From Candidatus Syntropharchaeum caldarium (GTDB taxonomy: Archaea > Halobacteriota > Syntropharchaeia > Syntropharchaeales > Syntropharchaeaceae), in the NCBI GenBank assembly GCA_001766815.1, contig LYOS01000002.1:90001-122000 (forward strand): a stretch of 32,000 nt of DNA, written 5' to 3'. Position 1 is the first letter of the stretch, and the number at the start of each line of letters is the position of its first letter. Shown one piece after another: positions 3,789 through 23,957 of this stretch. Made by a program: the position numbers and the translations under genes. The notes beneath the pieces are model-generated. The model searched no databases. It was not told the origin of the DNA and saw only the letters and a program-made list of their open reading frames with translations.

Positions 3789-5990
3789 CTATCCTATATA
3801 AGCGTTGGCTTCCACTGATCTCCTGCTGCCCCTGAAAATGCGTTCCATTCGCTCATAGAAGTCACGAGCATTCTCATCCATCGTTGGCTTGACAATTGAC
3901 AGTGCCTCTATAAAATGCCTCATCTTCACGCTGGTGGCGTCAAAATCCTCTCTCAGCGCTATAAGTCCTGCTTCTGTGCATAACGCCTCAATATCAGACC
4001 CCAGATAATCTTCTGTTAGATCTACAAGCTCACTGAGATTGACATCATCTGAAAGCGGCATAGAAGCAGTATGTATCTGGAATATCTGCCTTCGATCCTC
4101 TTTTGATGGTGGCGATACAAAGATGATCCTGTCAAACCTACCAGGTCGCAAGATGGCAGGATCAATTGCATCATAGGATCGGTTCGTTGCAGCAAGCATA
4201 ACAACTCCTTCAAGCCCCCTGATTCCATCCATCTCCGTTAGAAGCTGGTTCACAACCCGTTCTGATGTCTGTGACCCATTCATGCCTCTGGCGGGTGCTA
4301 TTGCATCAATCTCATCGAAGAATATTATAGAGGGTGCAGCCTGCCTCGCCTTCCTGAATATCTCCCTTATTCCGCGTTCTGATTCTCCGAGCCACTTTGA
4401 CAAGATCTCAGGACCATTGACCGCGATGAAGTTTGCAGATGACTCATGTGCGATAGCTTTGGCAATGAGTGTCTTGCCGCAACCGGGCGGACCGATCAAG
4501 AAGATGCCACCTGAAGTTTTAATTCCCATCCGTTCAAGATGCTCGGGGTATTTGATTGGCCACTCAACCATCTCAATAAGCTTCTTCTTAACATCTTCAA
4601 GACCCCCAACATCCTTCCAACCAACCTTTGGCGTCTCGATAAGAACGTCTTTTATTATCGATGGTTCGAGATCGTTCAAAGCCATCTTGAAATCTTCGGA
4701 CGTTACAACCAGTTCTTCAAGCCTCTCTTCAGGTATTGAATCGTCTTCAAGCTCGATCCCTGAGAGGAATCTTCTCAAAGCACACATCGCAGCTTCTCTG
4801 CAGACTGCCTCAAGATCTGCCCCGACATACCCGTGCAGCTTTTCCGAGAGCTTCGCAAGATCAACATCCTTCCCAAGCGGCATATTGCGGGTATGGACCT
4901 GTATGATCTCAAGGCGATCCTCATAATCAGGTACCTTGAGTTCGATCTCCCTATCAAATCTGCCAGGACGCCTCAGTGCGGGATCGATCGCGTTCAACCT
5001 GTTTGTCGCTCCGATCACAACGATCTCACCACGATCCACCAGCCCATCCATGATCGTTAGAAGCTGCGCAACCACCCTCCGTTCGACTTCTCCCGAAACT
5101 TCCTCGCGTTTTGGGGCAATTGAATCTATTTCATCAATAAAAATGATAGAGGGAGCATTTTCACGCGCTTTTTCGAATACTTCTCGAAGGTGTTTCTCGG
5201 ATTCACCGTAATACTTTGATACGATCTCCGGTCCTGCGATATCGAAGAAACTTGCGCCTGCTTCGTTAGCCACAGCTTTTGCGATCAGGGTCTTGCCACA
5301 CCCGGGGGGACCATGCAGAATCACGCCTTTTGGGGGTTTCACGCCAAGTCGGTTGAATACCTCAGGGTGCTTGAACGGCAGCTCTATCATCTCTCGGACT
5401 CGCTGTATCTCAGTTTTCAATCCACCAATATCCTCATAGGTGATTCCAGATAGGTTAAAATCTGTTTCAGCCTCGATCGCGTCGGTGAGAAGTTCAACCT
5501 CTGTATCTGCTGTCACAACAACCGCGCCATCTGGTTCGAGATCGCGGACAACAAATGGCAGAAACTCACCAAGCGTTGTGTTACTCATTACAGGGATAAT
5601 GTCCCCCTTGCAGAGCGCACGTTTCATGATCTGAGCATGTACAAGTTCTGTAACGTTCTTTCCACCAAAGACAACGTGACTTCCTTCAATTGGGGCAAGT
5701 TTGACACGAATTGCATTATTGATTTCCACTCGCCTCAGAACAACCCGCTCTCCGATCGCGACATTTGCATTCTCACGAGTGTAACGATCGATCTTCACGA
5801 TTCCTTTCTCCCAATCCTGTTTACTGAGCCTTGAAAGTCGTGCAACCGTCTTTCGTTTCCCCTCAATCTCGATAACATCCCCATAAGAGACTTTTAGATT
5901 GATCACGACATCGGGAGATACAGCTGCTCGCCCTCGCTCAAGATCTCTCGGATACGCCTTTGATACAATAAGATCTACTTCTTCCTTCAT
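3789..5990 (-). CDS. cdc48: Cdc48/VCP-type AAA+ ATPase (N domain plus D1 and D2 AAA modules)
   Basis: Two Walker A motifs (GPPGCGKT twice), two Walker B motifs ([16 protein letters not shown]) and second-region-of-homology arginines (RPGRFDR twice). ATG 5990 is preceded by GAGGGGTGA. The tracked ORF starts at GTG 5996, which overlaps the upstream stop. Confidence 0.95.
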
Positions 5991-5992
5991 TT

Positions 5993-7042
5993 TCACCCCT
6001 CAAACAAACTCTTCTGATAGCTTTTTATTCGTTTAACTGCATCCTCTGCTATCGCCGGATTTATCTCGTACCCAGCACCATCCCGTTTCAAATCCCTTGC
6101 AGCAACCAGAGTCGTTCCTGAGCCCAGAAAAGGATCAAGCACCGTCTCTCCGATGAAACTGTATGCCTTTATTAGCCTGTAAGGCAGTTCATAAGGAAAT
6201 GGTGCAACATGATCCCGTCTATCTCCACTTCCCTCTGGATTTATCAACCACACATCACTCTTCTTAAGCGAGAGCCAGAACTCTTTATCGAGCTTTGATG
6301 CTTCCTTTGCTTCAGGAGTGAGGTGTGCGTACTTTCTATAACCTGCTGGAGATGGCTTCTCAAACTCAAGGATAAACTCATGGGCATGATTCAAAAGGAT
6401 ACCACCAGGATAGGGGTACGTCCCAAAATGCGCCCTTACCGAGTTTGTCTTATGCCAGATAATATCCCGTTTGAAGATGAATCCGATCCTCTCACAGAGG
6501 TCGATCGTTCTTCCCACAAGATTTAAAGTTTTAAAACTCCCCTCTGTCCTTATCGGCAGGTTCATGATATTGATAAATGCCTTTCTTCCGGGCTGTAAAA
6601 CCCTGAAGACCTCCTCCCAGACATTGCTGATCTCATCAAACCATTCATCCAGGTCATGAATATCGCCAAGATCGCTCTCTATAGGCTCTCTGGAGTACAT
6701 CTTTGCATTAAAATACGGTGGAGAGGTTACCATTAAGTGTATCGAGTTATCCTCTATCTCAGACATCACCTGTGCATTCCTGACATAGATACGTTGACTG
6801 GTCCCGTTGACCTCAATGACGCTGGTTTCGCCGAGCACACTGCCTGTTTCATTCCTGCTAAACCCCTCGACTTCAATTTTCTGTAACGCATCAAGTGTGA
6901 ATCGATATTGTCCACTGGCTGATCTGTACGTCTCTATGGCATTTCGCTTAACAAGCTCATGGAGGTTACTCACCGATATTCCAAGATATTTTGCAGCTTC
7001 TCCTGATGATAGGTAACTTCTATTCCTATAATCTGTTATCAT
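5993..7042 (-). CDS. DNA methyltransferase, beta-class N4/N6 family (SPPY motif, N4-cytosine type likely) with N-terminal helix-turn-helix
   Basis: Motif IV is MVTSPPYFN and motif I is DPFLGSGTT near the C-terminus, which is the beta-class order. The N-terminal YLSSGEAAKYLGISVSNLHELVKRNAI is a MerR/excisionase-type HTH. The likely start is ATG 7042, in an ATGA overlap with the upstream small ORF; the tracked ORF starts at GTG 7072. Confidence 0.9.
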   Translation of the reverse strand: MITDYRNRSYLSSGEAAKYLGISVSNLHELVKRNAIETYRSASGQYRFTLDALQKIEVEGFSRNETGSVLGETSVIEVNGTSQRIYVRNAQVMSEIEDNSIHLMVTSPPYFNAKMYSREPIESDLGDIHDLDEWFDEISNVWEEVFRVLQPGRKAFINIMNLPIRTEGSFKTLNLVGRTIDLCERIGFIFKRDIIWHKTNSVRAHFGTYPYPGGILLNHAHEFILEFEKPSPAGYRKYAHLTPEAKEASKLDKEFWLSLKKSDVWLINPEGSGDRRDHVAPFPYELPYRLIKAYSFIGETVLDPFLGSGTTLVAARDLKRDGAGYEINPAIAEDAVKRIKSYQKSLFEG

Positions 7043-7203
7043 CGCTTTATGACTATTTTTATCTCTTTCCACTCTTTATCAACGCCATTGAGTTCCCCCA
7101 CAAAGCCGCCAATAACGCCAAGTGTCAGTCTTCTAACAAATGGATTTGTATCAATCTCCTGTCCGTCAGCAACAATCGTAACCTCAATATCCTTCTCATC
7201 CAT
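7039..7203 (-). CDS. Putative small protein, 54 aa, unknown function (below the 60-aa ORF-track cut-off)
   Basis: My own translation is MDEKDIEVTIVADGQEIDTNPFVRRLTLGVIGGFVGELNGVDKEWKEIKIVIKR. GGGGGAG lies 5 nt upstream of the ATG. It begins 17 nt after the moaA stop, and its TGA overlaps an in-frame ATG of the methyltransferase (ATGA). Confidence 0.45.
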   Translation of the reverse strand: MDEKDIEVTIVADGQEIDTNPFVRRLTLGVIGGFVGELNGVDKEWKEIKIVIKR

Positions 7204-7220: not shown

Positions 7221-8168
7221 TTATCCTTTAAAGAACGGTTCTCTCAGAGCCAGTGATCTCATAAATGCGTCCATGATGGCATCATTTCCCAGATCCTCGA
7301 TCGCAACGAGGTTATCATCCCTCAGGAGACATGGTTTAAACTTTCCGTCAGATGTCACCCTCAATCGGTTGCAGTTTGCGCAAAACTCCGAGTTATCCAT
7401 CGGACGCACCACTTCCACCTCTACTTCATCTATTAAATACTTTCGCCTGTGGTGCATCGTTCTACACCTGATTGAATCACATTTAAGAGCAAGTTCGCTT
7501 TCAATCGCCTTCATGTTACCCCTCAGTTCTTCAATTCCGTTAAAATCAAGCAGTTCAATGAGCTGAAGTATCACCGATCCCTTACCCCAGCGGGCATTGA
7601 GTTTGCGGATGTATTCCACCACATCCCAGATCTCATCATCGTTGATACCCTGTAGCAACACAAAATTGAGTTTAAGTGGAGAGAATCCAAGTTCACATGC
7701 CCTGTTAATCCCTGCAAGGGTGCGAGCAAGCATTTTTCCAGGTGCACCGGTAATCCGCGCATATCGCTCAGCCCTCAATGTATCAAGACTCACGTTTATA
7801 CGAAGTCCACAAGCTGGAAGCGATGGTGCGACATCTTCAAGGAGTGTGCCATTTGTTGTGAGTGAGATATCACTTAACGCTGGCAACGCTGCAAGAATCT
7901 CCGGGAGGTCATCTCTGAGGAGTGGTTCCCCTCCTGAAAACTTGACTCGATCAATACCAGCAGTAGTTTTCAGTACCTCAACGATCTTTACAACCATCTC
8001 TGCGCTGATCTCGTCATTCTGCTTCTTATTATTATGATTCTCACCTTCGTGGTGACAGTACAGGCAATTGAGGTTACATCGCTGGGTAAGTGATATCCTG
8101 AGGCTCCTTATCTGCCGACCATACAGGTCACAGAATATCCGAGGTTGTTTCATCGTATCAGCGCGCAT
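7221..8168 (-). CDS. moaA: GTP 3',8-cyclase MoaA (radical SAM, molybdenum cofactor biosynthesis)
   Basis: CNLNCLYCH radical-SAM cluster motif, GGEPLL, a C-terminal CxxC (FCANCNRLRVTSDGKFKPCL) and about 300 aa length. An alternative start is ATG 8153. Confidence 0.9.
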   Translation of the reverse strand: MRADTMKQPRIFCDLYGRQIRSLRISLTQRCNLNCLYCHHEGENHNNKKQNDEISAEMVVKIVEVLKTTAGIDRVKFSGGEPLLRDDLPEILAALPALSDISLTTNGTLLEDVAPSLPACGLRINVSLDTLRAERYARITGAPGKMLARTLAGINRACELGFSPLKLNFVLLQGINDDEIWDVVEYIRKLNARWGKGSVILQLIELLDFNGIEELRGNMKAIESELALKCDSIRCRTMHHRRKYLIDEVEVEVVRPMDNSEFCANCNRLRVTSDGKFKPCLLRDDNLVAIEDLGNDAIMDAFMRSLALREPFFKG

Positions 8169-8275
8169 GCTCTACATCAGCTGATTGGAAGACGTTACAT
8201 AAAAATATTATTAAAAATGACCTGTACGGATAACATTTATCAGCTATCTGCAGATTAAGTTAATAGGTGTCTTTG

Positions 8276-9901
8276 ATGAGCAAGAGAAGAAGCAGTCGTG
8301 TCCTATCCGGGATTGAACGAGCACCACATCGAGCGTTGTTCAGAGCGGTTGGGCTTGGTGAAGCAGATTTTAAGAAACCACTTGTTGCGATCGCAAACTC
8401 ATACAACGAGATAGTGCCAGGGCATATCCACCTCAACGAGCTTGCAAAGTTTGTAAAAGAAGGTGTGAGAGAAGCAGGGGGAGTTCCACTTGAGTTCAAC
8501 ACGATCGGTATATGTGATGGAATAGCGATGTCACACGAGGGCATGAAGTCATCACTCCCATCAAGAGAGATTATCGCAGACTCTGTTGAGCTTATGTTGA
8601 ATGCTCATGCCTTTGATGCCGTGGTTGCGATCGCATCATGTGATAAGATCGTGCCAGGGATGCTGATGGCACTTGCACGCTGCAACATTCCATCAATCAT
8701 GTTAACAGGTGGTGCGATGCTCCCGGGTGTTCTTGACGGGAAGAACTGCGACCTTGCCGATGTCTTTGAGGCCGTTGCACCCGTGAAGACTGGATCAGCA
8801 GATTCTGAGAAGATCGATAGACTTGAGCAAATTGCATGCCCTGGTGCTGGATCATGTGCAGGGATGTTCACGGCAAATACGATGCAGTGCCTCACCGAGG
8901 CGATGGGGATGTCACTTCCAGGCTCTGCGACCGTGCCTGCTGTATCTGGAGAGAAACGTGCGATCGCAAAGGCGACAGGAGTGAAGGTGATTGAACTTCT
9001 TGAGAAAGGTATAACACCTGAGAAGATCATAACACCCCAATCGATTGATAATGCCATCACCGTTGATCTGGCACTTGGCGGTTCAACAAACTCGGTACTT
9101 CACATAATGGCGATTGCCAATGAAGCAGGGGTTGAGCTTGAGATTGAGCGCTTCGATGAGTTATCGAGGCGTGTACCTCATCTGTGCAATATGTCACCTG
9201 CAGGCGATCACATGATTGTGGATCTGGATGAGGCTGGGGGAATTCCTGCGCTTATGAACGAACTGAGAGATCTTTTGAACCTTGATGTCATGACTGCATC
9301 TGGCATGGTACTGGAGGATGCAATAAAGGGTGCTGCTGTTACAAGGCGTGATGTAATCCGCACTGTATCGGATCCGTACCATCCAGAGGGGGGGCTTGCG
9401 ATCTTAAAAGGCAGTCTTGCACCTGATGGATCTGTCATCAAGCAGTCTGCGGTATCTGAAGCGATGCAGATACACAGCGGGCCTGCACGGGTCTTTGACT
9501 CGGAGGAGGAGGCAGCAGATGCGATATATGGTGGTAAGATCGAGAACGGTGACGTGATCGTGATACGATACGAAGGAGCGAAAGGAGGGCCTGGTATGCG
9601 TGAGATGCTTGGACCCACTGCCGCAATCACAGGGATGGGGCTTGATCGGGTTGTGCTCATCACGGATGGGAGGTTTTCAGGTGCAACCCGTGGTCCGTGT
9701 ATCGGTCATGTGATGCCCGAGGCAGCGGTGGGCGGTACGATCGCGCTTGTGAAGGATGGAGATACAATCAGTATCAATATACCCGAGAGAAGGGTTGATA
9801 TTGAGGTTGATGAGGAGGAACTTTCACGCCGCAGGGCGGAGTGGAGGGCGCCACCACCGAAAGTTAAGAAGGGAGCACTACTCAGGTTTGCAAAGGGATA
9901 A
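8276..9901 (+). CDS. ilvD: Dihydroxy-acid dehydratase
   Basis: N-terminal [12 protein letters not shown], then [13 protein letters not shown] and a GRFSG-type C-terminal motif. AGGTG lies 6 nt before ATG 8276; the tracked ORF starts at GTG 8267. Confidence 0.95.
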
Positions 9902-9981: not shown

Positions 9982-10743
9982 ATGAATGATGGAGGGGTTA
10001 GCATAACACTGGAACGGGTAGCTACCGGAATTATGGGACTGGACGAGTTGATTGGTGGCGGTTTTCCCGCAAAGACCGTAAATCTTATTTCAGCACCTTC
10101 AGGTAGTGGAAAGACACTCTTTGCCATGCAGTATATATACAATGGTGCGAAGGATCATGGAGATGTTGGAATCTTTATCACGACAGAGGAAGGCTATGGC
10201 AGCATACAGCGGGCAATGAGTGCATTTGGAATGGATATCACCAGATACGAAAACGAAGGTAAACTTTTCATCTTCGATATCGCAGAACTGAGGAAAGAGA
10301 TTGGTATCTCTAAATCCGAAAGACAGATAATGACGTTTGAGGCATTGCAGGATGCACTGGCGGGGATATTGAAGTACACCCGAGCAAAAAGACTCGCTCT
10401 TGACTCACTTGTGGGAATAGGACTTGCGTACCATTCTAACACCAGTCTGCGTGAAGATATCTTCAGGTTCAGCTGGTATCTTCGCGATATGAATCTAACA
10501 TCACTTTTGACGACCGAGTCTGTTGAAGGCGTAGCAGGACTTACAAGATATGGGGTCGAACAGTTCATCTCAGACTCACTCATTGTTCTCGGGCTTGAGG
10601 ATAACAACGGCGAACTCGTGCGAACGATCAGGGTGAGAAAGATGCGTTTTACAGCGCATGATCGTGGAAAACACCCGTTCCTCTTCACTTCAAAGGGTAT
10701 AGAGGTCTCACCCGGAGAGAAGATTTTTTTAGTTCATGGATGA
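9982..10743 (+). CDS. Single-domain KaiC-like (RecA-superfamily) ATPase, motifs intact
   Basis: GLDELIGGGFP, Walker A APSGSGKT (10093-10116), the catalytic Glu pair in FITTEE, and Walker-B-like RLALDSL. Its end overlaps the next gene by 8 nt (ATGGATGA). Confidence 0.85.
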   Translation: MNDGGVSITLERVATGIMGLDELIGGGFPAKTVNLISAPSGSGKTLFAMQYIYNGAKDHGDVGIFITTEEGYGSIQRAMSAFGMDITRYENEGKLFIFDIAELRKEIGISKSERQIMTFEALQDALAGILKYTRAKRLALDSLVGIGLAYHSNTSLREDIFRFSWYLRDMNLTSLLTTESVEGVAGLTRYGVEQFISDSLIVLGLEDNNGELVRTIRVRKMRFTAHDRGKHPFLFTSKGIEVSPGEKIFLVHG

Positions 10744-12277
10744 AGCCGTAGCAATATCGTCTCGATTGCTGGAAGGAGTGATAAGAGAGATTGGTCTGAT
10801 CATCGGTTCAGACCCGATCAGAATGTTGATCTCGCGCCTATCCAGGGATGAAGAGGTTCTGAAATCACTTGAAGTTGGAGATAATTTCAGTGTGTGTTTT
10901 GCTGGTCTCAATAACTCAGATATCGATTCCGGGCAAACATTGAATGCACTGAAAATACTCATGGATCACCTCGTAGATTTTTCAGCGAATATTTTTGGTG
11001 ATGAAGCTTCAGAAAGGATGATGGCTCGTGCACTGGAACCCTTTGATCAGGAGATTGCACGAATGTGCGAACTCAATCTTGCAGCGTTTCTCCCTCGCAT
11101 TGTTGATACTGAAATACACGAGAAGAAGCGGGGTGTGGCTGCAATAATTGACAAAAACAGGATTGAACAGGTTCTTGTGATATTTGAAGATATTTTATCT
11201 GCTTATCTGGAAGATGCGAGTGCCATCGGCTTGATTGAGCTCTACAGACGAAAGATAAGTTCACTACCACCCATCAACTCCATATCTTCACCAATAGTGA
11301 TTACAGATGATGGTAGTGTAAGCCTCTCCAGACTTAATAATGCTGATCTGGATGTGAGACTGCTGGTTGATGAACTCGCATCGATATCCGACTCATTTAT
11401 CGATACCGCATCTTTTCTAATCGGAAAAAAAGAGGCACTAAGTCGCGCAGAAAACAGTATAAACCCGGTCCTTGCAAGATTTCAGCCTTTAACCGATGAA
11501 CTCGGGATAACAGATAAAATTCTAAAAGGTAATCTTGCAAGACGAATCTCAACAGGTGTGAACGGTTTTGATGAGATTATTGAAGGAGGTTTCCCACGAT
11601 CAGGCTCGATTCTTCTGCAGGGACCACCGGGCATTGAGAAAGACGCTTTCATCAACGCATTCCTGAGATCAGGACTTTCAAAGGGTTATGCTGCGATGGC
11701 GGTTCTTTCAAAGTACACGCCAGCAGACCTCAGGATTCAGATGCGAGATACTGGAATTGATTTGATCAAGTACGAGGATGAAAATGTATTTGGCATGGTT
11801 GACTGGAACGCATGGCGCGGGGAAAACGTGAACGGGGTTGAGGAGGGAGATCGGAGTTCGGTTCTTCGATCATCAAGGGATCTTTCGTATCTGAGTATAG
11901 CTATAAACAAGGTACTTGCCAATCTTGATGAAGTTCCGACACGGCTCGCAGTCATTGATATACTCTCACCTGCCATAAATGACTTTGATTTTGAGACGGT
12001 TTACGATTTTACCCAATCACTCAGGATAAAATTCAAGAAAGAGGATGTTACAGCTTTATTTTTGATAGATAATGAGATGCATGATGGTAAATCACTATCT
12101 GCGATTCAGGAGATCTTCGATGGAGTGATCGAGATCGAGCGTCAACGGGTAGATGATCAGATCATAAGAAAGATCGGTGTGATACACATGGATAGAACAT
12201 ACTTTGATTCAAAATATAAGACGCTTAAACTCTCAAGGGAAGGTATTAAAGTTGTATCAGAGGAGGAATCGTTATGA
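10736..12277 (+). CDS. Two-part protein: ~270-aa helical N-terminal region of unknown family plus a KaiC-like domain with degenerate ATPase motifs
   Basis: The C-terminal half has GFDEIIEGGFPRSGSILLQGPPGIEKD (11621-11644), where the GK[ST] of Walker A reads EKD. The conserved EE position reads SKY. A Walker-B-like LAVIDIL is retained. Confidence 0.8.
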   Translation: MDEAVAISSRLLEGVIREIGLIIGSDPIRMLISRLSRDEEVLKSLEVGDNFSVCFAGLNNSDIDSGQTLNALKILMDHLVDFSANIFGDEASERMMARALEPFDQEIARMCELNLAAFLPRIVDTEIHEKKRGVAAIIDKNRIEQVLVIFEDILSAYLEDASAIGLIELYRRKISSLPPINSISSPIVITDDGSVSLSRLNNADLDVRLLVDELASISDSFIDTASFLIGKKEALSRAENSINPVLARFQPLTDELGITDKILKGNLARRISTGVNGFDEIIEGGFPRSGSILLQGPPGIEKDAFINAFLRSGLSKGYAAMAVLSKYTPADLRIQMRDTGIDLIKYEDENVFGMVDWNAWRGENVNGVEEGDRSSVLRSSRDLSYLSIAINKVLANLDEVPTRLAVIDILSPAINDFDFETVYDFTQSLRIKFKKEDVTALFLIDNEMHDGKSLSAIQEIFDGVIEIERQRVDDQIIRKIGVIHMDRTYFDSKYKTLKLSREGIKVVSEEESL

Positions 12278-12582
12278 ACGGAATTGAGATGTCTTTTGAC
12301 CTTTTAAAGACAGTGGCTGCGTTTGCCCTCTTTGTCTATACGATCAGGATGGCGGGTAGTGTCAGGCGTGGAACAACCGCATGGGTCTTCTTCGCAATGA
12401 TGGGTGCGTTCTTTGTATTTGCAAGGATATACGACTGGATAGGACTTATCGCACCGATCGTGGCAGGGACGGTCCCAGCATGGGAGATGATGTTCACTCT
12501 CTCAGAGGAACTGAGCAATCTATTTGCGATCTTCTGCGGGATGATGGGCGTGAAAGAGCTGTATGATGTTATGGTGAGGTGA
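12274..12582 (+). CDS. Small integral membrane protein (about 3 TM), paralog of the next gene
   Basis: ATGA overlap with the upstream gene and three hydrophobic segments. It shares GT(T/I)AW.. and ..G.KEL motifs with the following ORF. Confidence 0.7.
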   Translation: MNGIEMSFDLLKTVAAFALFVYTIRMAGSVRRGTTAWVFFAMMGAFFVFARIYDWIGLIAPIVAGTVPAWEMMFTLSEELSNLFAIFCGMMGVKELYDVMVR

Positions 12583-12587
12583 GCGTG

Positions 12588-12914
12588 ATGAACGAGATTG
12601 TGACATTTGTGGTGCTACAGGAAGTTATGAATGGTCTCACCTTTGTTACGGTGATGCTTGCAGGAAGTTTGGCTCTCATGGCTGCGATGCTTGCAACGAT
12701 CACATACAGCGTGCTCAAAGGTGGAACGATCGCATGGATGTATCTGATGCTTGGGTTCTGGATGTTTCTTGTATCATTCATTTTGAGGCTCTTTGGGGAT
12801 GCATGGGTAACTATGGGAATTGCAACCGATATCTCTTACCTCTTTGGGCTTGCAATGATGATCGCGGGCTTCAAAGAGCTATCAGGTATCTACGTTGATT
12901 ACCAGCAGACTTAA
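12588..12914 (+). CDS. Small integral membrane protein (about 3 TM), paralog of the previous gene
   Basis: GGTGAGGTGA ends 5 nt before ATG 12588; the tracked ORF starts at GTG 12579, which overlaps the upstream stop. Hydrophobic profile and motifs parallel the previous ORF. Confidence 0.7.
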   Translation: MNEIVTFVVLQEVMNGLTFVTVMLAGSLALMAAMLATITYSVLKGGTIAWMYLMLGFWMFLVSFILRLFGDAWVTMGIATDISYLFGLAMMIAGFKELSGIYVDYQQT

Positions 12915-18658: not shown

Positions 18659-21600
18659 GTGATGGGGCTGGGGGTATTTCTTGTAGCACTCTATGTTATA
18701 CTGGAGATTCTAATAAATGGTGTATCAGCACTGAGATCCTCAATTATTGCCGATCCAATCATCCCTTTCACTCTATTTCTGGTCACATCACTGTTCTTTG
18801 CTGTTGGTTACCTTCTGAGGCTACTGGTTCCGAATCAAGCAGTGGCACAGATGGTGACAGATTATTATGAACATGTACTGGGGGACACAAATCAGAGTGT
18901 TTCCATTATAGACCGAGAATACAGGATTAAGTTCCAGAACGGTGCGGCCACAAACATATTTGGGAATGCTGTTGGAGGTATATGTTATGCGGTATATTTT
19001 GGGAGGGACAGTCCATGCGAGGATTGTATGCTCCGGGATGTAATAGACCGATATAAACGCTTCACAAGCCTCAGAGAGCTTCAAGATGGCAGGAGATTCG
19101 AAGTCATCCTCACACCATTTGTGACCCGTGACGGGAGTATCGTTGCTGTTGAGATGATAAAGGATAAGATAGAGGAGGAAGTGGATGACAATGTCCTGAA
19201 GAAAGACCGCGATTATCTTGATGAGCTTGTCAGGGAGCGAACTGCTGAGCTGGCAATAGCCAATGAAGAGCTCAAAAAGGAGATCGCCGAGCGCAAGCAG
19301 ATTGAGGAGAAGGCCGCTGAGCGAGAAAAGGAGCTTCGGGTTATAGCTGAGTCATCGCTGGATGTCATCTTTGTCCTCTCAAAGACTGGAAAGATTCTGT
19401 ACATAAGCCCCTCTGCAAAAGAGCTTTTCGGGTATGAAGCAGATGAGATTATTGGCACTTCTTTTACTAAATATGTACCTAAAGGCGAGTTGCCCAGATA
19501 CTGGAAGACGTTGAAAAACGAAGTCCTTCGCGATAAGAAGGTTAGAAGCTTTAGAACGTACGTGAAACATCGTGACGGTCATCTAACGCCTGTTGAGATC
19601 ACTGGACAGCTGGTGAGAAGAGAAGGTAAGCTTGTTGCCCAGGGAACGGTTAGAGACATCACCGAGCGGATGCAGTATGAGGAAGAGTTGAAGAAGCATC
19701 GTGATCATCTCGATGAGCTTGTCAGGGAGCGAACCGCTGAGCTGGCAATAGCCAATGAACAGCTTAAAAATGAGATTGCTGAGCGCAAGCAGATTGAGAA
19801 AAAGATGATCGAGAAAGAAAAGGAGCTTCGGGTTATAGCCGAGTCATCGCTGGATGTCATCTTTGTTCTCTCAAAGACCGGAAAGTTTTTGTATATAAGT
19901 CCCTCTGCAAAAGAGCTTTTCGGGTATGAAGCAGATGAGATGATTGGCACTTCTTTTACTAAATATGTACCTAAAGGCGAGTTGCCCAGATACTGGAAGA
20001 CGTTGAAAAGCGAAGTCCTCCGTGATAAGAAGGTCAGAAGCTTTAGAACGTACGTGAAACATCGTGACGGTCATCTAACGCCTGTTGAGATCACTGGACA
20101 GCTGGTGAGGAGAGAGGGTAAAATTGTTGCTCAGGGGACGACGCGAGACATCACCGAGCGGATGCAGTATGAGGAAGAGTTGAAGAAGCACCGTGATCAT
20201 CTCGATGAGCTTGTCAGGGAGCGAACCGCCCAATTAACCGCGGCCAATGAACAACTTCAGGCGAGTGAGAGCGAAATAAAGGCGATAATCGAGAACGTTA
20301 ATGATATAATTTTCCAACTTTCTCCAACGGGTTACATTCAGTATGTTAGCCCAAATGTAGAAAAACTATATGGCTGGAAACTTGAAGATCTTATCGGGAA
20401 ATACCTGACCAAAACAACCCCCCTGAATGATGTGCCAAGAGTTCTTGGAGTATTAAAGCGTGTTTTATCAGGAGAAGTGGTCAAAAACTTCGAGCTACAT
20501 CAGAAGAATGCTCACGGAGAGCTTGTTCCAATGGAGGTCAATCTATCTCCCGTTAAAAAGGATGGCAGGATAACTGGAATGCAGGGGGTGATGCGGGATA
20601 TCACCGAGCGCAAAGAAGCAGAATTACTCTACCGCACAATCATCGATGCAGCATCACTGGCGAAGGAGGGTTTTGCACTGGTACAGGATGTTGACGGGAT
20701 CGAGGGGAGGCATGTCTTTGTTAACGACTACTACTGTGAGCTTACCGGATATACGAAAGAAGAGCTCTACCAGATGTCCTGCCATGCCATGATACACCCT
20801 TCAGTCAGGGATGAGGTTGTGGAACGATACAGGAGAAAGATGGCTGGTGAGAAACTTCCATCATATCATGAGTTTGAGTGGATAAAGAAGAACGGGGAGG
20901 TCATAACCGTAGGCTTGAGCAGTGCTGTTACAAATTTTAAGGGCAAACCAGCGTTTCTCTATTACTTCAGGGATATAACAGAAGAGAAAAAGCTAAAAGA
21001 AGAGATCAAACGTGGAAGAGCATTTCTTACCAGTGTTCTTTCAAGCATGAATGATATGGTTGCTATAATGGATGTACATGGGAACATTATGCGAATCAAT
21101 CATGCAGCAGAAGAAAAACTTGGGTTTATGAATGAAGACGTTACTGGTTTGAAGTTCAATGAGGTTGGCTGGTTTGATGGGCATCTCAGAGATGAGATTG
21201 AGCCTTACTTTGGCGAGGTTGCGGCGGGGAAGAATATTGAAGGACACGAAATCACACTAACAACAGCAGATGGCAGATCAATCCCATCTCTATTCTCAAT
21301 GTCACCGATCGTGGATAGATCGTCCAGCGAGGTTCTTGGACTTGTAGCTCAGGTAATAGATATATCAGAGCTTAAAAAGTTTAGCAACGAACTTCTTCAC
21401 CAGAAGGAGGAGCTTGTTAAGATGACCACTGAGCTCGAGTCCTCGAAGGCGTATCTTGAGACTCTGATCGATACAATTCCCTCGGCACTCTTCACCATAG
21501 ATACAGAGCAGAATATCACGCTCTGGAATCGTGCAGCAGAGGAGATAACAGGGTATAAAAAAGATGAGATGCTCGGTAAGAACTGTCGTATCATTGGAAG

Positions 21601-22960
21601 TGCTGACTGCTCTGAGATATGTACATTTCTGGATGTCACGGCCCCAAAACCTGTAACAGGAAAAGAATGCACGATTAGATCCAGGAATGGTAATATGATA
21701 ACCATCTCCACAAATGTCAATAATCTGAGGGATCTGTCTGGCAATATAATCGGAGTAATTGTGAGTTTCATCGATATAACCGAGAAAAAAGAGGCGGCAA
21801 GAATCATTGAGGCATCTGAAGCTAAGTTCAGGACGCTGGTTGAGAACCTGCATGCGGGCGTATTCAGGAGTACGGTCGAGGGTGAATACATCGAGGCAAA
21901 TCCTGCTATGACCAAGATACTCAAATCTCTGACGAAGTCAGAACTCACCAGATCGAACGTTCTGGATCTACTTTTTACAGGAGAGGCACGCGAAGAGATC
22001 TGTTCCAGGCTGAGGAAGGAGGGGGAAATTACGGGTTATGAGGTGCCGATAGAGACGATCGATGGAGGAGAGAAGCGATGGATCTCGGTTTCAATGAGGT
22101 GTGTGAACGGAAGGGATGCCCAGTACATCGATGGGGTCGTCGAGGATGTTACACGACAGAAGCATTACGCCGAAGAGCTTGAGCATGAGATCGAGATGGC
22201 GACATGTGAGCTCAAAAATGATAAGATGGAGCTTTCAAAAGCCTTCAATGAGCTGAAAGAGCTTGATGAATTGAAGACGCAGTTCTTCTCGAACATCTCA
22301 CACGAACTCAAAACCCCACTGACCGTGATAAAGGCGCATCTACACTTCCTGAAAACCGGGAAGCTTGGTAAATTGACCGAGAAAATGGCAAAATCGGTCG
22401 ATGTGGCAGCGAGGGAAGCGGTTGATCTTGAAGATCTTGTTGAAACGATCCTCGATCTTGCAAGACTTGATTCAGGAACTTTCAAGCTCAACCTTCTTGA
22501 GACTGCTATCAGTGATGTGGCAGCGGATCTTGTTGACAGGATGAGAAAGAAAGCGGAAGAAGAAGGGCAGAACCTGGTACTCGAGGTTGATGGTGAGATC
22601 CCGAAGCGATTGATTGATCCGAAACGGATGAAACAGGTGCTCATGAACCTTGTATCAAACTCGATAAAGTATAACCCTGAGGGTACCACAACAACGATTA
22701 AAATATATACTGACTCAAAGAACATTATCATAGACGTCACTGATGACGGTGTTGGTATCGAAAAGAAAGATCTTGAAAAGATATTTGATAGGTTCTACCA
22801 GGTTGATGGCAGCACCACTCGATCTGGTAGCGGGACCGGGATCGGACTCTCGATCGTAAAGGAGCTTGTTACGCTTCACGGTGGAGAGATCACAGTTGAA
22901 AGTGAGGTTGGTGCTGGTAGCACCTTCAGCGTCCTGCTCCCGATAGATTGGAAAGCTTAA
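18659..22960 (+). CDS. Membrane-anchored multi-PAS sensor histidine kinase (about 8 PAS-like modules, HisKA, HATPase_c)
   Basis: Two N-terminal TM helices, then repeated PAS modules separated by ERTAEL...NE.L..EI.ERK coiled-coil linkers. H-box FFSNISHELKTPL, N box LMNLVSNSIKY, G boxes DDGVGI and GTGIGLSIV. The start may be ATG 18662. Confidence 0.95.
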   Translation: MMGLGVFLVALYVILEILINGVSALRSSIIADPIIPFTLFLVTSLFFAVGYLLRLLVPNQAVAQMVTDYYEHVLGDTNQSVSIIDREYRIKFQNGAATNIFGNAVGGICYAVYFGRDSPCEDCMLRDVIDRYKRFTSLRELQDGRRFEVILTPFVTRDGSIVAVEMIKDKIEEEVDDNVLKKDRDYLDELVRERTAELAIANEELKKEIAERKQIEEKAAEREKELRVIAESSLDVIFVLSKTGKILYISPSAKELFGYEADEIIGTSFTKYVPKGELPRYWKTLKNEVLRDKKVRSFRTYVKHRDGHLTPVEITGQLVRREGKLVAQGTVRDITERMQYEEELKKHRDHLDELVRERTAELAIANEQLKNEIAERKQIEKKMIEKEKELRVIAESSLDVIFVLSKTGKFLYISPSAKELFGYEADEMIGTSFTKYVPKGELPRYWKTLKSEVLRDKKVRSFRTYVKHRDGHLTPVEITGQLVRREGKIVAQGTTRDITERMQYEEELKKHRDHLDELVRERTAQLTAANEQLQASESEIKAIIENVNDIIFQLSPTGYIQYVSPNVEKLYGWKLEDLIGKYLTKTTPLNDVPRVLGVLKRVLSGEVVKNFELHQKNAHGELVPMEVNLSPVKKDGRITGMQGVMRDITERKEAELLYRTIIDAASLAKEGFALVQDVDGIEGRHVFVNDYYCELTGYTKEELYQMSCHAMIHPSVRDEVVERYRRKMAGEKLPSYHEFEWIKKNGEVITVGLSSAVTNFKGKPAFLYYFRDITEEKKLKEEIKRGRAFLTSVLSSMNDMVAIMDVHGNIMRINHAAEEKLGFMNEDVTGLKFNEVGWFDGHLRDEIEPYFGEVAAGKNIEGHEITLTTADGRSIPSLFSMSPIVDRSSSEVLGLVAQVIDISELKKFSNELLHQKEELVKMTTELESSKAYLETLIDTIPSALFTIDTEQNITLWNRAAEEITGYKKDEMLGKNCRIIGSADCSEICTFLDVTAPKPVTGKECTIRSRNGNMITISTNVNNLRDLSGNIIGVIVSFIDITEKKEAARIIEASEAKFRTLVENLHAGVFRSTVEGEYIEANPAMTKILKSLTKSELTRSNVLDLLFTGEAREEICSRLRKEGEITGYEVPIETIDGGEKRWISVSMRCVNGRDAQYIDGVVEDVTRQKHYAEELEHEIEMATCELKNDKMELSKAFNELKELDELKTQFFSNISHELKTPLTVIKAHLHFLKTGKLGKLTEKMAKSVDVAAREAVDLEDLVETILDLARLDSGTFKLNLLETAISDVAADLVDRMRKKAEEEGQNLVLEVDGEIPKRLIDPKRMKQVLMNLVSNSIKYNPEGTTTTIKIYTDSKNIIIDVTDDGVGIEKKDLEKIFDRFYQVDGSTTRSGSGTGIGLSIVKELVTLHGGEITVESEVGAGSTFSVLLPIDWKA
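19211..20228 (+). repeat. In-frame tandem duplication, period 492 bp (about 2.07 copies), of a linker plus PAS module inside the kinase gene
   Basis: Units start at 19211, 19703 and 20195 (gat(t/c)atct(t/c)gatgagcttgtcagggagcgaac...). The two full 164-aa copies differ at 12 residues, counted from the supplied translation. Confidence 0.95.
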
Positions 22961-22985
22961 GGGGGGATAAAATCTGGCACGGGTA

Positions 22986-23360
22986 ATGGCAGTGGACGAT
23001 GATCCACGAATTAGAGAGGTACTTGAGATGCTCTTCACGATGGAGGGCATCGATGTGGCTGTGGCATCAGGTGGAGAAGAAGCGATCGAGATTCTTGAAA
23101 ATGAGGGTGAAAATATCGATCTACTTCTGCTTGACATAATGATGCCTAAGATGGACGGATGGGACGTTGTTAGAGAGTTACAGGCTCGTGGATGGACAAA
23201 CAGGCTACTGATAGCAATGCTCACCGCAAAAGGTGACCCAGGTGATAAAGCGGCAGGACTCGATGAGTACGTTTTTGACTACATTACAAAGCCTTTTGAT
23301 CCGGATGAACTTGTCAGGCGCGTAAAGGATTTTCTTGAAGTCATGGATGCGGCAAAATAA
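22986..23360 (+). CDS. Stand-alone response-regulator receiver (CheY-like)
   Basis: An acidic DDD run at the end of beta1, phospho-acceptor context LLLLDIMMPKMDG, and conserved T and K (MLTAKGD, ITKPF). Confidence 0.9.
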   Translation: MAVDDDPRIREVLEMLFTMEGIDVAVASGGEEAIEILENEGENIDLLLLDIMMPKMDGWDVVRELQARGWTNRLLIAMLTAKGDPGDKAAGLDEYVFDYITKPFDPDELVRRVKDFLEVMDAAK

Positions 23361-23375
23361 GCAGGAGAAGTTGAT

Positions 23376-23957
23376 ATGCCAGCAGAGAATGTGGTTGCTA
23401 TTGGCTCTTCCACGGGAGGTCTTGTTGCATTGAAGGAGATCTTAAGCCAGCTACCAGATAAGTTTGATGCTGCGATTGTGATCGTTCAGCACATGCCTGG
23501 CTTTATATCAAAGTCGATCGTAAACACACTGGGAGAGGTAACAAAACACACGGTTAAACTTGCGGAGGATGGCGAGGTACTCACCCCTGGCGTTATTTAT
23601 CTCGCACCTGGCGGCGATAAGCATCTTATCGTGGAGAATCGCAGTATCATGCTGGTTGATGGTGAGAAGGTCAACTTCTGCAGACCGTCTGTGGATGTGA
23701 TGATGAACTCGGTGGCCGAGGAGTTCGAGGAAAGGACGATCGGTGTGATTTTAACAGGTATGGGACATGATGGTGCAATGGGTATAGTCAAGATAAAAGA
23801 ACATGGGGGATACACGATTGCACAGGATAAGGTAACATCAGCCGTATTTGGAATGCCGGGGGCCGCCATTAATACAGGAAAGATCGATCGTGTATTACCA
23901 TCCTACATGATCGCACCAGAGTTTACCTCGATCATTGAACAGAGAACATTCACATGA
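23376..23957 (+). CDS. cheB: CheB-type protein-glutamate methylesterase/deamidase catalytic domain, no fused receiver
   Basis: Catalytic triad contexts are IGSSTGG (Ser), IVQHMP (His) and TGMGHDG (Asp), with a C-terminal FGMPGAAI. AGGAG lies 8 nt upstream of the ATG. Confidence 0.9.
   Translation: MPAENVVAIGSSTGGLVALKEILSQLPDKFDAAIVIVQHMPGFISKSIVNTLGEVTKHTVKLAEDGEVLTPGVIYLAPGGDKHLIVENRSIMLVDGEKVNFCRPSVDVMMNSVAEEFEERTIGVILTGMGHDGAMGIVKIKEHGGYTIAQDKVTSAVFGMPGAAINTGKIDRVLPSYMIAPEFTSIIEQRTFT

Follow-up and report, generated by a model that had tools for sequence, protein, structure and literature searches.

A four-gene cassette combines two KaiC-like proteins with two small membrane proteins

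Four closely packed genes on the + strand of a Candidatus Syntrophoarchaeum caldarius contig, here called g1 to g4, form a cassette that combines a KaiC-like ATPase predicted to be active, a KaiC-like pseudo-ATPase, and two small membrane proteins. They lie at positions 9982-12914 of the 32,000-nucleotide stretch that was analyzed as a whole (hereafter, the window), and domain and linkage evidence agree with this operon-like composition, which had been proposed in a preliminary description of the DNA. We estimate a probability of about one half that the cassette represents a lineage-specific, membrane-linked version of the archaeal KaiC-like signaling module. KaiC-like ATPases rank among the most abundant archaeal regulators and among the least understood, and inputs or partners have been identified for hardly any of them. 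Their role as signaling hubs in archaea, including hubs with inactivated KaiC domains (iKaiC), was put forward by Makarova, Galperin and Koonin in 2017, as cited in PMC5847659. An earlier suggestion that the cassette is an undescribed system is therefore not sustained, since the general design had already been proposed there and relatives of g2 already carry labels in public records ('RAD55 family' or 'KaiC/GvpD/RAD55 family RecA-like ATPase'). Our literature search returned no paper linking Syntrophoarchaeum with KaiC, and none mentioning DUF7504, a family to which g2 is partly similar.

g1 resembles the CI domain of KaiC over its whole length

The g1 product matches 229 of the 231 positions of the Pfam KaiC profile (PF06745) with an E value of 1.1e-62 and a score of 211.9 bits, against a cut-off of 26.6. 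Its best matches in the PDB are KaiC CI domains (E 4e-63), and PH0186 is matched at E 2.9e-49. The alignment with the CI domain of cyanobacterial KaiC extends from end to end and takes in the Walker A motif (APSGSGKT), the catalytic glutamate pair (TTEE), the Walker B aspartate (LALDS) and the R..K.R.T.H segment. The earlier observation that g1 retains Walker A (GSGKT) and the catalytic EE is thus upheld by alignment with a characterized relative. We interpret g1 as a complete, single-domain KaiC/CI-like ATPase and predict from these motifs that it is active. Its ratio of nonsynonymous to synonymous substitution rates (dN/dS) is 0.09-0.14.

Several more specific identities were considered and set aside. 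As a bona fide circadian KaiC, g1 has one domain and scores 148 and 185 bits with NCBIfam TIGR02655 and NF006799, for which the cut-offs are 546 and 408; the corresponding scores of g2 are only 25.6 and 53.1 bits, and neither KaiB nor KaiA partner genes were found among the open reading frames (ORFs) of the window. The NCBIfam cut-off for ArlH/FlaH is 215 bits, of which g1 reaches 36.8 and g2 18.4, and the window contains no arl genes. Of the NCBIfam models for the RadA and RadB recombinases, RadB scored highest, with 26.3 bits where 172 are required, and the public name 'RAD55 family ATPase' is one given at superfamily level.

The C-terminal domain of g2 is a conserved KaiC-like domain predicted to be inactive

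The fold of KaiC is also present in g2, where the Pfam profile matches residues 271-510 with an E value of 3.2e-29 and 102.4 bits (cut-off 26.6), again over about 229 of its 231 positions. An AlphaFold2 model of g2 built from a 14-sequence alignment reached a predicted local distance difference test (pLDDT) score of 85 overall and about 90 in the C-terminal domain; an alignment of four close sequences gave a pLDDT of 46. When the model was compared with the PDB using Foldseek, 50 of the 50 matches listed fell on the KaiC domain, and among those listed were superpositions on PH0284, PH0186 and KaiC CI with target-normalized template modeling (TM) scores of 0.80-0.87. PH0284 and PH0186 from Pyrococcus and SSO2452 from Sulfolobus (PDB 2dr3, 2zts and 2w0m) are the closest solved folds among the matches listed, and they are close relatives of g1 in sequence, but these are stand-alone proteins of about 240 residues that lack the duplicated N-terminal domain described below.

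Three KaiC-derived families whose function is not known were compared with the same domain. DUF7504 scores above its threshold (36.4 bits against 27) over residues 355-467, although only positions 62-179 of the 179 in the profile, its C-terminal two thirds, are aligned. DUF7090 (22.0 bits) and MEDS (PF14417; 14.5 against 29.8 bits) remain below their cut-offs, and the N-terminal unit of g2 is found in none of the three.

Within this fold, the residues that define an active KaiC-type ATPase have been replaced. GPPGIEKD stands in place of the P-loop and LSKY in place of the catalytic T-x-E-E, and both substitutes are invariant in four orthologues. The P-loop lysine is retained, while the glycine that precedes it and the serine or threonine that follows it are lost. 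The preliminary description had noted that g2 keeps the landmarks of the fold without GK[ST] or the EE pair, and the profile, model and structural comparisons corroborate both halves of that statement. The disruption extends to the family as a whole. All 16 aligned members lack G-K-[ST], and in 15 of the 16 a glutamate precedes the lysine or arginine. In the 14-sequence family alignment the P-loop consensus is x-P-x-G-x-E-[KR]-x with a nearly invariant glutamate, the EE pair is absent, and the Walker B position varies among D, E, H and N. Because the P-loop is degenerate and the EE pair missing across the family, inactivation appears to be ancient and to have been maintained. With its fold kept, its catalytic motifs disrupted and that disruption conserved, g2 corresponds to the description of an iKaiC protein and is predicted to be inactive.

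A search of viral predicted structures (BFVD) with the g2 model gave DnaB-type helicases as the best matches, aligned over nearly the whole length, with a helical N-terminal domain followed by a RecA-like C-terminal domain. As modeled, this likeness is one of layout only, with root-mean-square deviations of 15-22 angstroms. Identity with a DnaB-type helicase was rejected: the TM scores of these alignments are about 0.35, and the DnaB_C profile matched g1 only, at 19.5 bits against 27.

The N-terminal region of g2 is a tandem duplication

The N-terminal region of about 270 residues had earlier been described as unassignable to any family. This still applies to the databases, as the g2 N-terminus found no match in Pfam, NCBIfam or PADLOC, or by sequence in the PDB, but the region itself resolves into two copies of a unit of about 120 residues. 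When residues 7-107 were aligned with residues 149-250 using hhalign, the two halves matched with a probability of 96.4% and an E value of 1.2e-9. The secondary structure of the AlphaFold2 model likewise recurs in both, as a long helix, a short helix, a beta-hairpin and two long helices. The second copy is the better conserved, and five relatives (P0020, P0021, P0027, P0028 and P0030) carry it alone at their N-terminus. A profile of the unit retrieved nothing credible from Pfam or from the PDB, where the best matches were de novo designed proteins at E 0.0087.

To place this region in a wider context, a profile of residues 1-268 was compared with 1.84 billion representative proteins, which yielded 25 matches. 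In every full-length match scanned, the N-terminal domain directly precedes a KaiC-like domain, and most of the relatives scanned also match DUF7504 or DUF7090. Some carry additional C-terminal TPR repeats, zinc ribbons or helix-hairpin-helix domains. The N-terminus of g2 therefore consists of two tandem copies, produced by duplication, of an uncatalogued unit restricted to this pseudo-KaiC family.

The g1-g2 pair is conserved beyond Syntrophoarchaeum

The g2 family was found in metagenome-assembled genomes of Halobacteriota and Thermoplasmatota only, and outside the Syntrophoarchaeum clade it is the g1-g2 pair that remains conserved. In one Thermoplasmatota locus (L007), a 242-residue KaiC immediately precedes the g2 relative and is 54% identical to g1. 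A second (L013) has a tight operon that encodes a winged helix-turn-helix (wHTH) protein, a 101-residue protein, a 240-residue KaiC and a 726-residue g2 relative. In two Halobacteriota loci from tar biofilm (L011 and L012), a response-regulator gene separates the g2 relative from a KaiC gene located about 1 kb upstream; the L011 KaiC is 60% identical to g1. In each of these four loci a g1 orthologue (54-60% identity where measured) is thus encoded beside the g2 relative or in its vicinity, whereas the g2 relatives share only 28-38% identity with g2. The reach of the individual searches differed: word-indexed protein searches with g2, and with profiles of g3 and g4, returned Syntrophoarchaeum-type relatives only, and a scan of a genome collection with a narrower family alignment returned only three tar-biofilm Halobacteriota loci.

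A slowly evolving, active g1 and a fast-evolving, dead g2 behave as a conserved core, and the surroundings, which vary by lineage, contain typical signaling parts. This combination fits the KaiC-hub/iKaiC pattern proposed by Makarova and colleagues, as summarized in PMC5847659. The modules described there share with our loci an active single-domain KaiC, a probably inactive divergent KaiC, and variable response-regulator, wHTH and TPR components around them. They differ in that the g2 subfamily has a duplicated N-terminal unit without a counterpart in Pfam or the PDB, and in that Syntrophoarchaeum adds two small membrane proteins.

Two features of the Thermoplasmatota loci are recorded separately. 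In L013 (3484-4268), a 160-residue MarR-like winged-helix protein and the 101-residue protein, which is rich in cysteine, are encoded ahead of the KaiC/g2-like pair with 4-nt overlaps, an arrangement that suggests a transcriptional output of the core. In L007, a gene for a V4R and DUF835 protein (430-1395, - strand) diverges from an operon of small ORFs, KaiC and the g2 relative, and may belong to the same regulatory neighborhood; the small upstream ORFs of this locus are unrelated to the N-terminal unit.

The same relatives bear on a different interpretation, in which the pair acts on DNA as a recombination or repair mediator of the RadA-paralogue type (Rad55/aRadC-like), with an inactive paralogue assisting an active ATPase of the RecA superfamily. 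Such a role is suggested by the public name 'RAD55 family ATPase', by the helix-hairpin-helix and zinc-ribbon domains that follow the KaiC-like domain in P0020 and P0021, by a Hef-type helicase-nuclease gene that adjoins one g2 relative, and by the weak, whole-length structural likeness to the DnaB layout. We consider it improbable. g1 is far closer to KaiC CI than to RadA, RadB or RecA (E 1e-62 against 1e-3 to 1e-6), neither g1 nor g2 of the window contains a DNA-binding domain, and the deviations of the DnaB alignments are those given above. In addition, the cassette is coupled to membrane proteins, and its neighbors elsewhere are signaling parts.

g3 and g4 travel with g2 within one clade

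Two further contigs carry all four genes, and another four, which are truncated upstream, carry g2-g3-g4; the loci with the full set or with g2-g3-g4 are L001, L002, L003, L017/L018 and L019. In the six or seven distinct contigs, g3 and g4 always follow g2 directly, at spacings of -4 to +4 nt. The set in L002 is flanked by the genes for NucS and lysyl-tRNA synthetase in place of IlvD and LX. Since the flanks differ, the four genes moved or stayed together as a unit. A prediction that the genes would co-occur in other genomes is thereby borne out in part, as they do so in these further contigs, but the full set is confined to the Syntrophoarchaeum clade. Neither profile searches nor a hidden Markov model search of all fetched g2-like loci detected g3 or g4 homologues outside Syntrophoarchaeum-type contigs, and a metagenome scan with g4 added one more contig of that type. 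In L017 (1-1008), g2 is broken into three frames and contains about 165 additional nt, and g3 and g4 are intact; the split could reflect an assembly error or decay.

These data allow an alternative in which g1 and g2 work only with each other, and g3 and g4 are small membrane proteins of unrelated function that happen to be on the same transcript, for instance housekeeping factors tied to the downstream LX-prefoldin-FtsY-EMC6 genes. It would account for the absence of g3 and g4 from every g2-like locus beyond Syntrophoarchaeum, and for the fact that five of their six contexts place them directly ahead of the genes for LX, prefoldin alpha and FtsY. It does not readily account for L002, in which g3 and g4 stayed with g1-g2 and not with the LX-FtsY cluster, or for the conserved g2-g3 overlap of 1-4 nt with a Shine-Dalgarno element located within g2. 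On balance we regard this alternative as unlikely.

Whatever their role, g3 and g4 are the best-conserved proteins of the cassette, with identities among orthologues of 84-94% (g3) and 79-92% (g4) compared with 66-82% for g2. At dS values of about 0.8-1.1, dN/dS is 0.04-0.12 for g3 and 0.09-0.12 for g4, which indicates that both are real genes under strong purifying selection. Hydropathy analysis predicts three or four hydrophobic segments in g3, which has an RRGTTAW loop and a C-terminal GVKELYDVMVR tail, and three clear segments in g4, which has an LKGGTIAW loop and a GFKEL tail. The two share a G.KEL tail and, following the first segment, a (R/K)GGT.AW loop; by the positive-inside rule, both of these motifs would face the cytoplasm. 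The two proteins had earlier been described as paralogues with three transmembrane segments. The three segments are clear in g4, while g3 may have three or four, and paralogy is plausible but weakly supported: the pair align at E 0.01 by BLASTP and with a probability of 37% and E 3.6e-4 by hhalign, and their profiles are each other's best non-self matches when every ORF of the fetched loci is searched. The last hydrophobic segment of each also carries an invariant acidic residue, E78 in g3 (12505-12507) and D84 in g4 (12828-12830; ORF numbering). In the paralogue alignment these residues are one position out of register.

No match to g3 or g4 was found in Pfam or NCBIfam at E values up to 1, or in PADLOC. 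An assignment as small multidrug resistance (SMR) transporters was rejected: there is no match to Multi_Drug_Res, and the conserved acidic residues occupy the last hydrophobic segment and not the first. None of the proteins of the cassette matches a characterized transporter, archaellum or clock accessory family in Pfam, NCBIfam or PADLOC.

The buried carboxylates raise the prospect of an energy-coupling membrane machine, in which g3 and g4 would use them to conduct ions or a substrate, with the g1 ATPase ring as driver or gate. The pairing of small paralogous membrane genes is reminiscent of paired small transporters, the acidic residues are invariant, and an ATPase is encoded in the same operon. 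No KaiC-family protein is known to drive transport. The g1-g2 pair occurs elsewhere without a membrane partner, and Pfam and NCBIfam gave no similarity to transporter, SMR, Mot/Exb or secretion families. We therefore see little likelihood of such a machine.

A model for the cassette

Under the reading that we prefer, a membrane-linked KaiC-like signaling module, g1 would be the enzymatic core, presumably as an ATP-hydrolyzing hexameric ring. g2 would be its dedicated noncatalytic partner, with an iKaiC domain that keeps the fold but is predicted not to carry out canonical ATP hydrolysis. It most likely binds g1 by stacking on the ring or inserting into it, as judged by analogy with the CI-CII stack of KaiC and the docking of ArlH on ArlI. 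The first analogy is a close one in that g1 corresponds to CI over its whole length and, together with the C-terminal domain of g2, mimics a two-domain KaiC that has been split; it differs in that the domains reside on separate polypeptides and the second is catalytically degenerate. In the second analogy, a KaiC-fold protein, ArlH/FlaH, serves as partner and regulator of a hexameric ATPase within a complex associated with the membrane (10.1101/2021.03.19.436134), but the partner in our case would be another KaiC-like protein and not an ATPase of the type IV secretion type. The duplicated N-terminal domain of g2 is a likely adaptor or input surface. In Syntrophoarchaeum, g3 and g4 probably form a small heterodimeric membrane unit, whose loop and tail, the sole predicted cytoplasmic features, could either recruit g1-g2 to the membrane or relay a membrane-derived signal to it.

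Four observations weigh against this interpretation. Retention of the P-loop lysine leaves room for a g2 that may bind nucleotide without hydrolyzing it. The support for paralogy of g3 and g4, and for their topology, is weak. The link between g3/g4 and KaiC-like proteins comes from one lineage, with no relatives detected beyond a single clade. Finally, no KaiC gene was found near several members of the g2 family (P0019, P0029, the TPR-fused P0015, and P0014 in L004).

A more elaborate version of the model can be drawn, which we offer as a speculation with a small chance of being correct. In it, g1 and g2 would build a split KaiC-like ring of two tiers, one active and CI-like, the other dead, and the duplicated N-terminal collar of the dead tier would dock on the g3/g4 heterodimer, whose buried carboxylates would sense or conduct ions; the whole would act as a slow ATPase switch gated by membrane potential or ions. 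If true, this would represent a new class of input for KaiC-type timers or switches and would define the N-terminal unit and the g3/g4 family as two new domains.

With or without such a switch, the cassette offers a compact, testable case of a conserved active/inactive KaiC pair and of a pseudo-ATPase family that is rare and can be recognized by its E-[KR] P-loop. In this one clade of syntrophic butane oxidizers, g3 and g4 might provide a KaiC-like module with its first membrane input or anchor. What is new for the databases is two uncatalogued families, the N-terminal unit and the g3/g4 pair. The impact is limited in that the concept has been published, the full cassette is found in one uncultured lineage, and a function is not yet assignable.

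Gene junctions and expression signals

All four + strand ORFs of the preliminary description are present, and the features that we assigned to them are collected in Table 1.

Table 1. Features of the cassette and of its products, in window coordinates
Feature	Position	Strand	Remarks
TATA-box-like element TAATTATATTAA	9937..9948	+	Precedes the g1 ATG by about 35 nt; probably the archaeal promoter for the cassette
g1	9982-10743	+	253-aa ORF
g2	10736-12277	+	513-aa ORF
g2 residues 1-128, first copy of the unit	10736..11119	+	Helices, small beta-hairpin, two long helices; hhalign, AlphaFold2
g2 residues 129-268, second, better conserved copy	11120..11539	+	With linker helix to the KaiC-like domain; hhalign
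g2 residues 269-513, iKaiC domain	11540..12277	+	Pfam, AlphaFold2, Foldseek
Degenerate P-loop GPPGIEKD of g2	11621..11644	+	G-K-[ST] changed to E-K-D, as read from the sequence
Shine-Dalgarno-like GAGGAGG	12260..12266	+	7 nt upstream of g3 ATG, inside the coding end of g2
g3	12274-12582	+	102-aa ORF
Shine-Dalgarno-like GGTGAGGTGA for g4	12573..12582	+	Contains the g3 stop codon; GGTGAGGT conserved in 5/5 orthologous junctions inspected
g4	12579-12914 (ORF); 12588-12914 (probable gene)	+	111-aa ORF opening at GTG 12579; probable gene 108 aa

Across the orthologous loci, the spacing at all junctions lies within -4 to +4 nt. In the window, g1 and g2 share 8 nt (ATGGATGA, 10736-10743) and g2 and g3 share the 4 nt ATGA (12274-12277). 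The overlapping stop and start signals read as originally described, but the g1/g2 overlap is peculiar to the window. In orthologues, g1 ends at a TAG that is separated by 3 nt from the ATG of g2. The window has a run of seven T residues in this region (10725-10743; TCTTTT in the L001 orthologue), and the one extra T shifts the frame past the ancestral TAG, so that g1 is four codons longer than its orthologues and the ATGGATGA overlap with g2 results. The g2-g3 overlap, by comparison, is conserved. Its Shine-Dalgarno element reads GGAGG, or nearly so, in the window and in L001 and L002, and is the weaker GAGGGGG in L003 and L019. At the third junction, the g3 stop codon does fall inside a Shine-Dalgarno-like element, as had been noted, and that element is conserved across orthologues. 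Upstream of g1, the core TAA.TATATTAA of the TATA-like element is kept in the window, L001 and L002, even though the genomic context of L002 differs. Tight spacing, Shine-Dalgarno elements before g3 and g4, and a conserved TATA-like box make it plausible that the four genes are co-transcribed and their translation coupled. The stoichiometric co-expression and the energizing role suggested in the preliminary description are inferences that go beyond these signals.

Two start sites deserve comment. The true start of g4 is most likely the ATG at 12588, because orthologues begin with M(S/N)EIVT and the public annotation has 108 residues. For g2, the public annotation of 503 residues implies a start about 10 codons downstream of ours (window 10736-10768); we favor the ATG at 10736 because the first ten residues that it adds, MDEAVAISSR, are conserved in orthologues.

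Genomic setting

The genes around the cassette are of the housekeeping type. Upstream are MoaA (7221-8168, - strand) and IlvD (8267-9901), and downstream are ribosomal protein LX, prefoldin alpha, FtsY, EMC6-arch and PCMT. This inventory substantiates the earlier remark that no KaiA/KaiB, archaellum, pilus or transporter genes are adjacent. It also makes a mobile defense or addiction module built on a KaiC-like NTPase highly improbable. The cassette does occupy two different genomic contexts, and g1 has a weak PADLOC match to mad8 (E 3e-7), but that match is limited to the generic P-loop region, no integrase, transposase, nuclease or other defense genes are nearby, and the GC content of the cluster (0.44-0.45) equals that of its surroundings.

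Elsewhere in the window we found an archaeal 16S-tRNA-23S operon and three further groups of genes. At 18659-23957, a 1433-residue histidine kinase that contains many PAS domains precedes a stand-alone receiver protein and a 193-residue protein consisting only of a CheB methylesterase domain; apart from this last protein, the window holds no chemotaxis genes. On the - strand at 3789-7072, a gene for a Cdc48-type double AAA ATPase lies directly downstream of one for an HTH_17 and N6/N4 DNA methylase protein, with a 4-nt overlap and no restriction enzyme gene evident. Also on the - strand, at 280-1590, a 436-residue protein that matches cohesin domains twice and has a lamin-tail domain adjoins a 323-residue ORF without a Pfam match.

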